IMG/VR virus record: IMGVR_UViG_2718217863_000003
Origin: a virus
Taxonomy: Duplodnaviria; Heunggongvirae; Uroviricota; Caudoviricetes
Direction: 5' to 3' (one strand)
Length of the DNA: 42,690 nt
Part shown: piece after piece, positions 31,926 through 38,549 of the stretch
How the letters are laid out: each line of letters opens with the position of its first letter
Numbering within the stretch: the stretch's first letter is position 1
Notes under the pieces: generated by a model
Databases searched by the model: none
What the model saw: the letters and a program-made list of their open reading frames with translations, nothing else
Told to the model about the DNA's origin: nothing
Made by a program: the position numbers and the translations under genes

Positions 31926-32081
31926 TTACTCCTCAGGTTCGTAAGCTGTGAAGACAGCGACCTCCGTCTGGCCGGTTCGGATTCGTACCTCGCAGAGGTC
32001 TTTCCTCGTTACCAGTGCCGTCACAATGACGGTTAAACAGATGACGATCAGGGCGATTAACATCGCCTTTTGCTGCTTCAT
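31926..32081 (-). CDS. hok: Hok/Gef-family type I toxin (HokD/RelF-like)
   Basis: MKQQKAMLIALIVICLTVIVTALVTRKDLCEVRIRTGQTEVAVFTAYEPEE; AAGGAG RBS. Confidence 0.9.
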   Translation of the reverse strand: MKQQKAMLIALIVICLTVIVTALVTRKDLCEVRIRTGQTEVAVFTAYEPEE

Positions 32082-32340
32082 AGCCTGCTTCTCCTTGCCT
32101 TTCGGCACGTAAGAGGCTAACCTAGATTTGCCGTTCATAGATTGAGCCTCAGATTAATGTTAAGCGTCTTGCAGGACGCGTAATGTTAACTGGGGCTTTT
32201 CTCTATCTGCCTTTTGGTGTTCATGCCTGAGACAGATAGCCTCAAGCACCCGCAGTCATTCTACTTAACTAAGATTTCCCCGCAAACCGTTTTTGTCCGG
32301 CACAGTAAATATCCAACTAAACCAATGGCGTTCGCTGTAT

Positions 32341-35467: not shown

Positions 35468-35893
35468 TCAATGTACTGCCACAGCATTTCCTGCCGGGCC
35501 ACCACGGTTCATCTGATTGAAACCGGCGATTGCCACTGCGACAAAATCATCAGCGTCTCTCACCAGTCGCTCCCGCGTCTCCACCAACTCCCGAAAATAA
35601 GCTGAACTGTGGCTGCGCATTCTGGCCACCAGCAAAGGTGGCATTGCCTTTTCGATCGCTGGTAACAACGCCTGAATTTTTTCAACTGCATCAGGGGTGT
35701 CTTTCTCCACCCAGCGGAAAATTTTCTGGGTATTGCGAGCCAGGGCTTCCGGATGGCTGTCGTCATACAGTTCCGGGAACGTCATTCCCAGCTCGAAATA
35801 CGCTTTGGTAATTTTCGCAGCCGGTACTTTTTCGCCGTCCGGATGCGCCCAGGCATTCATCGCCATGCGGATGTGTTCATGCTTGATTTTCAT
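35468..35893 (-). CDS. YdaT-like / CII-position regulatory protein
   Basis: MKIKHEHIRMAMNAWAHPDGEK...; AAGGGGG RBS; follows cro-like gene as in Rac ydaS-ydaT. Confidence 0.55.
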   Translation of the reverse strand: MKIKHEHIRMAMNAWAHPDGEKVPAAKITKAYFELGMTFPELYDDSHPEALARNTQKIFRWVEKDTPDAVEKIQALLPAIEKAMPPLLVARMRSHSSAYFRELVETRERLVRDADDFVAVAIAGFNQMNRGGPAGNAVAVH

Positions 35894-36119
35894 GAATCCC
35901 CCCTTGGTTAGAAGGCGGATTATGATCAGAACCGGGAATGACAACCGTCGGTATGTGTAACTCATATTTGAGCGCCCCGGCAGTGACTGCCTGAATTAGC
36001 AACGCCCATTTCCACGGAACCTCTTCCCCCCACATGCTGACTGTGGTTTTTGACGTTCCTAGAGCTGCGGCTGTTTTAACAACTCCGCCAAAATAGCCTA
36101 ATACTTCTGATTTTTTCAT
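35877..36119 (-). CDS. Cro/YdaS-like HTH regulator
   Basis: 81 aa, MKKSEVLGYFGGVVKTAAALGTSKTTVSMW...; divergent from cI; GGAG RBS. Confidence 0.7.
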   Translation of the reverse strand: MKKSEVLGYFGGVVKTAAALGTSKTTVSMWGEEVPWKWALLIQAVTAGALKYELHIPTVVIPGSDHNPPSNQGGIHENQA

Positions 36120-36210: not shown

Positions 36211-36849
36211 ATGAGCAAGCAAACTATATCTGAACGCATAACCCAACGTATGCATGCGCTAAACCTGAAAGGCAAAGACCTTGTCAATGGCACTGGCGCA
36301 TCAAAAGGCTCCGTAAGTCAATGGATGAACGGTGGAGGAGCGCCGTCCTCGCGTTACATAAGTTCACTGGCAAAAATATTGAAAGTAAACGAAAATTGGC
36401 TTCTTAATGGAGGAGAGTTAAATACAGGTGATTCGCTTGATCTATCTTTACCGCCGATAAAAACGGTTCCGCTACTATCACTTCAGCAGGCAGCAAGCTG
36501 GAGTGATTATATGAAAAATTCCTCAATAACCTCTTGTGTGCAGCTTGTCGGAGAAATCCCGGTCAATACCTTTGCAGTTGTTCTAGAGAGTGACAGTATG
36601 TCAACATCTGGTGGGGGAGTTTCCATCCCAAATGGTTCAACAGTTTTTGTTGATCCCGATCGAACCGTACAACCAGGAAATATTGTCCTTGCCTTACCCA
36701 AAGGGACCACAACACCTGTCATTCGTAAACTGGAGATAGAAGGGCCGGATATTCTTTTAGTCCCCACGAATCCTCGCTACCCTTCAATTATGCTGGATGA
36801 TCTATCTTGCATATTGGGCGTATGCTTTAAAATTCAACAAGATATTTAA
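36211..36849 (+). CDS. cI: CI-like repressor (HTH plus LexA/S24-like autocleavage domain)
   Basis: 212 aa; N-terminal HTH ...LKGKDLVNGTGASKGSVSQWMNG...; C-terminal S24-like; no SD. Confidence 0.85.
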   Translation: MSKQTISERITQRMHALNLKGKDLVNGTGASKGSVSQWMNGGGAPSSRYISSLAKILKVNENWLLNGGELNTGDSLDLSLPPIKTVPLLSLQQAASWSDYMKNSSITSCVQLVGEIPVNTFAVVLESDSMSTSGGGVSIPNGSTVFVDPDRTVQPGNIVLALPKGTTTPVIRKLEIEGPDILLVPTNPRYPSIMLDDLSCILGVCFKIQQDI

Positions 36850-36916
36850 CCAACCTCATCTATTTGATTAACTGTATGCCATCGTGGTGATGGCTTAACA
36901 GCTGCCTGCTTAAAAT

Positions 36917-36962
36917 GTTTTGATAAAAAAACATTGACCTGAAAAGTTCGTTTTTCTAAACT
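36917..36962 (+). promoter_or_regulatory. candidate OL operator and pL promoter (TTGACC-N17-TAAACT)
   Basis: GTTTTGATAAAAAAAC resembles reverse complement of OR repeats; sigma70 hexamers follow. Confidence 0.5.
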
Positions 36963-37280
36963 TCATTCATTCCCTCACCCCATCCTACAGAATGCAGGGC
37001 AATACTTCGAGTTACCAGGCAGTGGTCAGGGGTTAAGTAGCCAGCCCGAGGCGTAAGAACATGACGGCAGGGTTCAACTTTAATAACTATGCAGCAGGTT
37101 TTTGTTCCGCTACCCCGGCGTTAAGGGGAAACAGAGGATTTCTCAGTGGGCGAAGTCAAACATCAGAATGGAAGGCGTCCAGGGATCAGCAAAGAAACAG
37201 CGATGGCGCTTTATATTGATATCAGCGCCATTGCCGGACAGGTAAGAATTATCAGAGCGGTAACTAAGCGGTATGCGCCT

Positions 37281-37481
37281 TTACTTCAGAAAGTCTCTGG
37301 TGAGTGCACCGAAGATATTGTCAACGATTTCGTCATCAAACTGCGAGGACTCATCTTCAGTTACAAGGTGACCACAATTTTTGCAGATGGCTCCCGCGAA
37401 ACTGTCAGAGCCCTGCGGTTTAAAGGATGTGTCAAAGACTTCGCCACCACATTCTGGGCAAGAAAACTTGATTGTATTCAT
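37281..37481 (-). CDS. hypothetical zinc-ribbon protein (66 aa), antisense to predicted pL transcript
   Basis: CPECGG(x21)CKNCG; GAGAGGAAA RBS before ATG; overlaps opposite-strand ORF 37146..37502. Confidence 0.45.
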   Translation of the reverse strand: MNTIKFSCPECGGEVFDTSFKPQGSDSFAGAICKNCGHLVTEDESSQFDDEIVDNIFGALTRDFLK

Positions 37482-37573
37482 AACCAATTTCCTCTCGAGT
37501 AACAGACCCCTCAGAGGATACCACCTCGCCTGACGTGGTTAAAAGCAGGCAACGCTAACCACAAGGAGCCGAC

Positions 37574-37792
37574 ATGCAGAAACGAGAACCCGTCATCATC
37601 GCGCCAGACTATACCGATGATGAACTTTATGAGTGGATGCGCCAGAAAATTAATGCAGCGCAGGATTTGAAATGGGCCAATGAAGCCAGGGCTAAGCAGG
37701 CTGAAAATCTGTCCGCTCTGGAGCAGGATATCACCAGGCTGGAAAAAGCAGCGGCATTAAGCATTGCCAGAATGATTACATACCCGCGTTAA
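37574..37792 (+). CDS. hypothetical early protein (72 aa)
   Basis: AAGGAG RBS; acidic N-terminus, coiled-coil-like C-terminus. Confidence 0.5.
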   Translation: MQKREPVIIAPDYTDDELYEWMRQKINAAQDLKWANEARAKQAENLSALEQDITRLEKAAALSIARMITYPR

Positions 37793-38360
37793 TAGATAAC
37801 CAACGAAGCTAAGGTTGGTAATTAAGGAGTTCTCCACGGGTGAGGTGGAGTGCGTGCGCCGGACACGGGTGAGCATCCGGCACTGACAGTTTACTGAAAG
37901 GATATTTCCCTGAAAAGTCAGACCATAACGCGAAAGCGCACGGCGAGGTAGCTGGTTCATAGATAGCCTGTCGTTAAATTTTCGTCGACCGTGCGCTTCC
38001 GGTTGTGGCAATCCGCGAAATGGCGCGGCGGTAAGTATGGCGGGGTTATTCCTTCCCCCGTTGAGGACACCGGGTTGTCAGGTTGACCATACGCTTAAGT
38101 GACAACCCCACTGCAACGCCCTCTGTTATCAATTTTCTGGTGACGTTTGGCGGTATCAGTTTTACTCCGTGACTGCTCTGCCGCCCTTTTTAAAGTGAAT
38201 TTTGTGATGCGGTGAATGCGGCTAAGCGCACGCGGAACAGTTAAAACCAAAAACAGTGTTATGGGTGGATTCTCTGTATCCGGCGTTAATTGTTAACTGG
38301 TTAACGTCACCTGGAGGCACCAGGCACCGCATCACAAAACTCATTGTTGAGGGCGCGATA

Positions 38361-38549
38361 ATGAAAACGTTATTACCAAACGTTAATACGTCTGAAGGTT
38401 GTTTTGAAATTGGTGTCACTATCAGTAATCCTGTATTTACTGAAGATGCCATTAACAAAAGAAAACACGAACGGGAGTTATTAAATAAAGTATGCATTGT
38501 TTCAATGCTGGCCCGTTTACGTCTGATGCCAAAAGGATGTGCACAATGA
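38361..38549 (+). CDS. hypothetical early protein (62 aa)
   Basis: internal ATG with GAGGG RBS; MKTLLPNVNTSEGCFEIGV... Confidence 0.4.
   Translation: MKTLLPNVNTSEGCFEIGVTISNPVFTEDAINKRKHERELLNKVCIVSMLARLRLMPKGCAQ

Follow-up and report, generated by a model that had tools for sequence, protein, structure and literature searches.

Evidence that an early-left cassette of lambdoid prophages encodes proteins on both strands of the same triplets

Can both strands of a single short stretch of prophage DNA encode conserved proteins, triplet upon triplet? Long antisense coding overlaps in bacteria and phages are still disputed, and the question is raised here by a pair of overlapping open reading frames (ORFs) in a 42,690 nt Caudoviricetes sequence (IMG/VR record IMGVR_UViG_2718217863_000003; the whole stretch is referred to below as the window), which is a lambdoid prophage of Escherichia coli. 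One frame was listed on the plus strand at 37146..37502 (GTG start, 118 aa, with GAGGA 7 nt 5′ of the GTG) and the other on the minus strand at 37281..37487, where an ATG at 37481 gives a product of 66 aa. An earlier sequence-only reading had described the two as overlapping ORFs on opposite strands, and all the sequence features that it named were present (37146-37502, plus; 37281-37481, minus). It had also called the pair ambiguous and judged that at most one ORF was likely to be real. The ambiguity is genuine, in that annotation is split between public records. In E. coli strain M217 the Prokaryotic Genome Annotation Pipeline (PGAP) called the minus ORF ('ECs_2282 family putative zinc-binding protein'), in O145:H28 strain 12E115 it called the plus ORF ('hypothetical protein') because of a nonsense allele of the minus ORF (E14*, discussed below), and phage records carry the plus ORF alone. 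An annotation rule of picking one ORF fails at this locus, with pipelines reporting either gene depending on a single nonsense mutation. The judgement that only one ORF is real was not upheld: both frames appear to be under purifying selection and both ORFs were kept in every lineage examined. On this comparative evidence we consider it highly probable that two genuine protein-coding genes share triplets at this locus, one of them fully nested antisense within the other.

The two frames lie in exact codon register, with minus position 1 opposite plus position 3 and position 2 opposite position 2. This codon-on-codon antisense arrangement is termed sas13 in the nomenclature of OLGenie, a method that estimates an overlap-aware ratio of non-synonymous to synonymous substitution (dN/dS) for the detection of purifying selection (PMC7531306). 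The minus-strand ORF, referred to here as the zinc-ribbon gene, is fully nested in the plus gene, such that 66 of 99 plus codons are shared over approximately 200 nt. Long shadow ORFs arise most readily in the sas13 register, which is classically associated with them, and a single open ORF pair in one genome therefore proves nothing; it is the comparison between lineages, set out below, that goes beyond chance expectation.

Conservation of the two reading frames

Relatives were identified by protein search and their DNA was then compared, together with that of approximately 130 independent loci of E. coli type, drawn from viral and metagenome collections, and of one Serratia chromosome. Citrobacter, Klebsiella and Enterobacter yielded relatives of the zinc-ribbon protein that were 60-84 % identical; for the plus protein, identity among relatives extended down to 36 %, with 36-39 % the lowest values among 16 lineages. 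Both ORFs were intact in all 16 of these divergent lineages (Escherichia, Citrobacter, Klebsiella, Enterobacter, Serratia and metagenomes). Fifteen of them have a zinc-ribbon ORF of 66 codons; in Serratia a 12 nt deletion that keeps both frames leaves 62. The plus ORF was open over 90-115 codons in 19 lineages. Searching with tblastn revealed the same nested pair, in the same register and at approximately 29 % identity, in phage HK639, Klebsiella phage ST974-OXA48phi18.2 and KP12. Profile alignment to these distant phage copies with hhalign (zinc-ribbon protein, E=6e-10; plus protein, E=2e-5) indicated homology on both strands. The distant plus analogues fall in phrog_29546, which links that family to phrog_21318, the family of the plus protein. 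For the most divergent members, two scans of genome and viral contigs returned nothing. The pair appears to move as one cassette of approximately 0.4 kb among lambdoid prophages of Enterobacterales, and in most lineages this cassette comes first after a cI-like repressor gene and a pL-like promoter. In the three distant phages the plus analogues HK639_45 (L217 2462-2809), QBP28601.1 (L218 1995-2303) and KP12_367 (L219 1971-2258) are annotated 'hypothetical protein', and each holds an intact, unannotated 63-73 aa CxxC...CxxC ORF on the opposite strand in exact register.

The zinc-ribbon gene (37281-37481, minus strand) encodes a 66 aa protein, MNTIKFSCPECGGEV...CKNCGH, in which C8, C11, C33 and C36 form a CxxC-x21-CxxC arrangement followed by an acidic C-terminal helix. 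The protein matched NCBIfam NF047912 (ECs_2282 family putative zinc-binding) at 57.3 bits against a cut-off of 37, with residues 4-59 aligned to positions 1-56 of 60, and also aligned (E=1e-9) with the N-terminal part of the 194-position profile phrog_4852. A Shine–Dalgarno (SD) sequence, GAGAGGA (37490-37496, minus strand), lies 8 nt 5′ of the ATG at 37481. The earlier description of this ORF as a zinc ribbon was sound. An SD sequence (AGGA, GGAGG or AAGGA) situated 7-9 nt from the ATG was kept in all lineages, even beyond the end of the plus ORF. The four cysteines, predicted to bind metal, were likewise invariant in all lineages, their codons swapping between TGC and TGT as the plus residue opposite alternates between Ala and Thr. 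The end of the gene is tied to the plus frame by a shared triplet (37281-37283), where the TTA (Leu) of plus codon 27 reads as the zinc-ribbon stop, TAA, on the opposite strand. Across the 16 lineages plus codon 27 was only ever TTA, CTA or TCA, the three codons complementary to stops, and in one lineage a Leu-to-Ser change in the plus protein still kept the zinc-ribbon stop. The product is most likely a zinc-binding module for nucleic acid or protein, carrying an acidic helix.

The zinc-ribbon gene faces both pL and cI, and so would need a promoter of its own. A conserved block of 71 nt 5′ of its ATG (37482-37552, minus strand) was kept in 14 of 16 lineages amid unrelated flanks. It includes a candidate extended -10 promoter, comprising TTAACC (37542-37537), 16 nt and TGgTATCCT with its hexamer at 37520-37515. 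Two short putative hairpins were also drawn in the block. Hairpin 1 (GCCUG...CAGGC) has one compensatory pair, and hairpin 2 covers the zinc-ribbon SD sequence, with arms that are swapped between lineages from CUUGG/CCAAG to CCUCU/AGAGG yet are still complementary. The consensus structure of the block was weak (-5.4 kcal/mol, one compensatory pair), fold z-scores were not significant, and both promoter and hairpins are tentative assignments. Part of the block (37515-37551) was also present in prophages that do not carry the pair.

The plus protein matched phrog_21318 (E=8.8e-67), residues 20-118 of the 118 aa form aligning to profile positions 1-99 of 99. The GTG start at 37146 proposed by the sequence-only reading is present with its GAGGA, is co-directional with pL, and has a better SD sequence than the ATG at 37203. 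The start of the conserved gene is nonetheless more likely to be ATG 37203, giving a 99 aa product (37203-37502, plus strand). This is because variation over the 18 codons that follow the GTG (7/3/4 at the three codon positions) lacks the pattern of coding sequence, because a 1 nt deletion puts the GTG out of frame in 11 E. coli-clade loci, and because the start in other lineages lies at positions equivalent to 37197-37203; in four of those lineages a strong SD sequence and an ATG occur two codons 5′ of the position equivalent to 37203. The PGAP call of the plus ORF also starts at ATG 37203 (99 aa). Homology between lineages ends at the conserved SD sequence and ATG of the plus gene, and the DNA 5′ of them is unrelated. 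Variant starts were seen in Enterobacter (L009/L010 and L215), where the conserved ATG is replaced by TTG or GTC and the plus ORF extends upstream by approximately 30 codons with its own CxxC (KCKSCG). In L005-L007 the plus ORF is open for 174 codons upstream and the internal SD sequence and ATG are still kept.

The N-terminal 26 codons of the plus gene (37203-37280, plus strand) are single-coding and carry the motif LxVDxSAxxGQ...P-L. Among 24 plus codons outside the overlap, variable sites numbered 14/11/21 at codon positions 1/2/3. AlphaFold (AF2) modelling from only 11 sequences predicted a compact alpha-alpha-beta-beta-alpha fold for the plus protein, with a predicted local distance difference test (pLDDT) score of 74. 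No structural relative of the plus protein was found, and PDB profile searches for both families gave no match. A deep hidden Markov model search with the plus family returned only 12 cluster representatives, all of them similar small proteins or noise.

Selection on both frames and alternative explanations

Simple pairwise dN/dS estimates for each frame were suggestive but confounded by the overlap, and were replaced by a triplet model calibrated by simulation. In this model each triplet is one state coding both strands, with kappa, one omega per frame, F3x4 frequencies and Felsenstein pruning, and it was fitted to the 16 lineages jointly with the 24 non-overlapped plus codons, leaving branch lengths free. 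The estimated omega was 0.26 for the plus frame outside the overlap (likelihood-ratio test [LRT] for omega=1, 81.9), 0.42 for the plus frame inside the overlap (58.2) and 0.29 for the zinc-ribbon frame (125.1). Because selection on one strand can mimic selection on the other in the sas13 register, single-frame evolution was simulated on the same tree with BLOSUM-weighted acceptance and strong gamma rate heterogeneity, using 100 runs for each null. When only the zinc-ribbon gene was constrained, the maximum simulated LRT for the plus frame was 16.7 compared with 59.9 observed, the lowest omega was 0.63, and the plus frame was open throughout the 16 lineages in 0 of 100 runs. When only the plus gene was constrained, the corresponding values for the zinc-ribbon frame were 9.8 compared with 127.2 observed, 0.67, and again 0 of 100. 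An earlier set of 39 sequences gave the same result from the model and the simulations.

Site patterns and replacement types were also informative. At zinc-ribbon positions 3/2/1 the overlap had 43/16/32 variable sites when lineages were compared and 17/3/8 within the E. coli clade, and plus third positions were variable at 32 of 65 codons inside the overlap compared with 21 of 24 outside. Parsimony rates per opportunity were near multiplicative, at 0.71 for changes silent in both frames, 0.32 for those silent in the zinc-ribbon frame only, 0.19 for those silent in the plus frame only and 0.10 for replacements in both. Amongst changes silent in the zinc-ribbon frame, replacements in the plus protein had a mean BLOSUM62 score of 0.81 against an expected 0.03 (P<0.0002). 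Amongst changes silent in the plus frame, replacements in the zinc-ribbon protein had a mean of 0.57 against an expected -0.08 (P<0.0002). The effect was present separately in transitions and in transversions. This bias towards conservative replacement appears to be a protein-level signal, and as such speaks against a purely nucleotide-level constraint such as RNA structure. Both amino acid sequences are, as far as these alignments indicate, under purifying selection beyond that expected from the symmetry of the genetic code.

Two tests suggested alongside the original prediction can be judged from these data. Synonymous-site conservation confined to the plus frame had been named as grounds for discarding the zinc ribbon; the opposite was observed, the zinc-ribbon frame being the more constrained within the overlap and the plus frame being constrained too. 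Codon usage scoring of both frames had also been proposed, and when run it gave 0.153 versus 0.155 bits per codon, values that fall between the distributions for in-frame and for antisense readings of long genes in the window, favour neither frame and do not discriminate.

Both ORFs, their starts and ribosome-binding sites and the zinc-ribbon stop are conserved, and both protein sequences are constrained. Several points nevertheless weigh against two functional genes. No transcript, ribosome-profiling or proteomic evidence for either product was present in the literature searched, nor was there any paper on ECs2282 or on the pair as an overlapping gene. The triplet model was purpose-written, used a neighbour-joining tree and assumed no recombination within 270 nt, and doubly synonymous sites were few, with 9-14 inferred changes. 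The AlphaFold model of the zinc-ribbon protein was of low confidence (pLDDT 55) and too poor for a structure search. The candidate minus-strand promoter is an 8/12 match, below the promoter-scan threshold, and its -10 element overlaps the 5′ arm of hairpin 2, such that promoter and hairpin cannot both be as drawn. Finally, of 135 de-duplicated loci, 23 carry a nonsense allele of the zinc-ribbon gene (22 with E14*, one with E44*), from which it appears that this small gene is dispensable in some E. coli prophages. The plus ORF was never broken alone amongst the same 135 loci. At the nucleotide level E14* (window 37440-37442) is a GAA to TAA change that equates to F80L in the plus protein and includes O145:H28 strain 12E115, whilst E44* (window 37350-37352) is a GAG to TAG change, silent in the plus gene, found in one locus (L086).

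Other explanations would require only one of the two proteins. In the first, the zinc-ribbon protein is accompanied by a functional RNA or DNA element, so that constraint on the plus frame derives from an antisense regulatory RNA or from structure in the pL transcript and the plus ORF is at most a short, unimportant leader peptide. A 27 nt patch (GGTCAC.TTGTAACTGAAGATGAG) that is near invariant in nucleotides, synonymous sites included, is in keeping with such an element, and antisense RNAs are known in lambdoid immunity regions (OOP in lambda, sar in P22). Constraint on nucleotides, however, does not predict the conservative bias of plus replacements that are silent in the zinc-ribbon frame. 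Nor does it predict that the plus ORF should be open over 90-115 codons in 19 lineages, that an SD sequence and ATG should be kept at its head, or that its product should be modelled with confidence as a compact fold. We regard this explanation as unlikely.

It is very unlikely that only the zinc-ribbon gene is real and that the plus ORF is a shadow ORF, kept open because a register of position 2 against position 2 rarely creates stops and called because it is longer. The register is the one most prone to such ORFs, constraint in the overlap is stronger on the zinc-ribbon frame (omega 0.29 versus 0.42), the E. coli clade concentrates its variable sites at zinc-ribbon third positions (17/3/8), NCBIfam curates the zinc-ribbon family alone, and 10 % of the single-frame simulations on the 39-sequence set kept the plus frame open throughout. 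Set against this, the 26 plus codons that lie outside the zinc-ribbon ORF are themselves conserved (14/11/21; omega 0.26, LRT 82), with homology ending at the SD sequence and ATG. Within the overlap, the plus omega of 0.42 falls below the simulated minimum of 0.63, the LRT of 58-60 exceeds the maximum of 16.7, and in none of 100 runs did the frame stay open throughout the 16 lineages. Changes silent in the zinc-ribbon frame lead to conservative plus replacements (P<0.0002), the plus ORF is unbroken even where the zinc-ribbon ORF is broken, and the plus protein is predicted to fold with confidence.

The converse, that only the plus gene is real and the CxxC pairs are a chance by-product of plus Thr/Ala-Phe-Trp-Ala and Thr-Thr codons, is scarcely credible: most records by gene callers and phage annotators do carry the plus ORF alone, the plus gene is always co-directional with its operon, and the zinc-ribbon gene has both its nonsense alleles (23 of 135 loci) and a poor model (pLDDT 55), but its LRT of 125 and omega of 0.29 lie far outside the simulated extremes of 9.8 and 0.67, with the frame open throughout the 16 lineages in 0 of 100 runs, plus third positions are less variable inside (32/65) than outside (21/24) the overlap, the four cysteines are invariant though the facing plus residues alternate between Ala and Thr, the stop is held by TTA, CTA or TCA only, the SD sequence and ATG are conserved outside the plus ORF, and the protein scores above the NF047912 cut-off and matches phrog_4852 (E=1e-9).

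A nested pair of genuine genes would offer a clean test case for codon sharing, with recognizable features on both strands, namely a zinc ribbon on one and a predicted alpha/beta fold on the other. The pair travels together through at least five genera, to approximately 30 % identity, and passes selection tests that are overlap-aware and calibrated by simulation. Frame-specific knock-outs are easy to design, and two exist as natural alleles.

Relation to known systems and a possible strand switch

Antisense overlapping genes are a known and contested category (PMC5960689, PMC9927249, PMC8850804, PMC7457138). Examples include ano inside ECs2385 in E. coli O157:H7 (PMC5960689), three further antisense pairs in EDL933 (PMC9927249) and cases in Pseudomonas aeruginosa (PMC8850804). 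As these reports describe them, the O157:H7 and P. aeruginosa examples are novel ORFs inside longer annotated genes, supported mainly by RNA-seq and Ribo-seq. They resemble the present pair in that two opposite-strand coding ORFs occupy the same bacterial DNA, an annotation rule drops one of them, and overlap-aware dN/dS is used to look for purifying selection. The present pair differs in that both genes are small and nearly coextensive, co-occur in every lineage to approximately 30 % identity and are supported by comparative evidence. We found no example with such depth of co-conservation of two small, nearly coextensive genes.

Both protein families are already in databases, and we found no recognition that NF047912 and PHROG 21318 represent one locus. 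NF047912 is named only as putative zinc-binding, PHROG 21318 and 29546 are without functional annotation, and the family tables do not place both gene sets on the same DNA. A close parallel is HK639_45 with its antisense zinc-ribbon ORF, in which both proteins are distantly homologous to those described here, with the same nesting, the same register and the same position as first gene after pL. HK639 differs in that identity of the zinc-ribbon protein is only approximately 29 %, a putL-like RNA precedes HK639_45, and HK639_45 alone is annotated. Lengths differ as well, at 70-73 aa for the zinc-ribbon ORF and 113-115 aa for the plus analogue.

Two better-characterized protein types of the early-left region were considered and rejected as identities for the products. 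Lar/Ral-type zinc-ribbon proteins of Rac and other prophages (TIGR03655, phrog_6422) are also small CxxC...CxxC proteins of this region. Similarity of the zinc-ribbon protein to the Lar family of restriction alleviation proteins was at noise level (15.7 bits compared with a TIGR03655 cut-off of 39.6; E=0.0098), and Lar genes are co-directional with the operon whereas the zinc-ribbon gene is opposed to it. The plus protein was compared with N-type antiterminators of lambda, with which position alone matches; the conserved part has no arginine-rich N-terminus and a compact alpha/beta fold is predicted.

The arrangement of the locus recalls the OOP RNA of lambda, which acts against cII, and the sar RNA of P22, which acts against ant, both of them non-coding RNAs that overlap part of their target. 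All three would share a short, convergently transcribed RNA beside the repressor gene, whose sequence complements an early lytic mRNA and which would be expected to damp it. In the present pair the proposed antisense transcript would span two thirds of the target ORF and be the mRNA of a conserved protein. Expression might then proceed as follows. The plus gene would be transcribed from pL with the early-left ydfC-DicF-dicB operon upon inactivation of the repressor. The zinc-ribbon gene would be transcribed from its own weak promoter (37515-37542), convergent to pL, which would allow its product to be made in the lysogen, where pL is silent. Given converging promoters and 200 nt of full complementarity between the two mRNAs, expression from either strand could be expected to depress that from the other through transcriptional interference and duplex RNA. 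The outcome would be two mutually exclusive products, one for each phase of the phage life cycle.

Extended further, the cassette might constitute a strand-switch module, in which a lysogeny-phase zinc-ribbon protein, read towards cI, is set against a lytic-phase protein made from pL, with mutually silencing transcripts. The direction of transcription through the 200 bp would both report and reinforce the state of the switch, the two proteins might share a target or act on each other, and the locus would rank among the most deeply conserved antisense dual-coding loci in bacteria and phages. We put this forward as a speculative proposal, possible but on balance doubtful. More generally, a convergent gene at the head of the dicB/DicF operon, beside the repressor, could influence the lysis–lysogeny switch.

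Genomic setting and neighbouring features

The 601 bases queried were 100 % identical to strain M217 and to phage vB_EcoS-640R1, and the locus was present in approximately 930 of 5,426 complete E. coli genomes, O157:H7 and O145:H28 prophages among them. Upstream in the window lie cro (35877-36119, minus strand; P22_Cro match) and the cI-like repressor gene (36211-36849, plus strand), an uninterrupted 212 aa ORF with a helix–turn–helix domain and Peptidase_S24 (Pfam). In strain M217 PGAP annotates only the C-terminal 113 aa of this repressor ('LexA family protein'; L001 2012-2350). A consensus scan placed a pL-like sigma-70 promoter, TTGACC-17-TAAACT, 3′ of the cI-like gene (36934-36962, plus strand), which is the presumed driver of the plus gene and the ydfC-DicF-dicB operon. 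Downstream of the pair, the next operon gene is ydfC (37574-37792, plus strand; PGAP annotation; phrog_1744), followed by the DicF RNA (38135-38186; Rfam DicF, 76.7 bits), dicB (38361-38549; Pfam DicB), ydfD and an exonuclease VIII-like gene. The pair is thus the first cassette of the early-left (dicB/DicF) operon, in the slot held by N in lambda. Two genomic contexts were seen for the plus gene, behind cI in most lineages and behind cro in two, and in each it runs in the same direction as the surrounding operon. In two lineages (L011 4930-6084; L212 1396-2553) a protein of 384-385 aa with an HSDR_N domain, the N-terminal domain of type I restriction enzyme R, is encoded between the repressor region and the pair.

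A position equivalent to that of rexAB had been proposed for the pair. This does not fit the map, since both genes lie downstream of the pL-like promoter, outside the interval from cI to pL, and the zinc-ribbon gene runs against cI. Nor did the suggestion of an exclusion or defence function gain support, since PADLOC gave no hit for the plus protein and only a 16.5 bit match (E=0.0019) of the zinc-ribbon protein to the candidate system PDC-M14A. The same proposal had treated the site next to cI as a hotspot, and in this it was correct: the site is a variable cassette slot, which ydfA/ydfB occupy in other prophages with the same flanks. In one such E. coli prophage (L216 1501-2428), ydfA/ydfB take the place of the nested pair and are bracketed by the same 132 nt leader and the same 37 nt block (37515-37551). 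The annotated neighbours of L216 also match, with YdaT-family, Cro/CI-family and LexA-family genes upstream and dicB, ydfD and the exonuclease downstream. The ydfA/ydfB genes and the nested pair look like alternative cassettes swapped at conserved junctions. Pfam and NCBIfam searches with the pair's proteins gave no hit to YdfA (DUF1391) or YdfB, the occupants of this slot in Qin-type prophages.

The leader shared with L216 is a conserved untranslated stretch of 132 nt between the pL-like promoter and the plus gene (37000-37131, plus strand). Unannotated copies of it occur in more than 4000 of 5426 complete E. coli genomes, and a 76 % identical copy was found in an Actinobacillus phage. In HK639 an annotated putL-like antiterminator RNA fills the equivalent slot. 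A put-like antiterminator was considered for the leader itself but gained no support, as the leader has no alignable similarity to HK639 putL and no unusually stable fold (minimum free energy z=+0.78). An Rfam scan of 36850-37620, leader included, gave no match. Elsewhere in the window Rfam matched two STnc100 small RNAs, a sok antitoxin RNA, an ALIL frameshifting pseudoknot and a tRNA gene, the coordinates listed for these matches being 27994-28182, 28458-28651, 32076-32251, 282-398 and 29005-29077. The sok antitoxin RNA implies a hok/sok-type module, and the ALIL pseudoknot corresponds to an IS3-type element.

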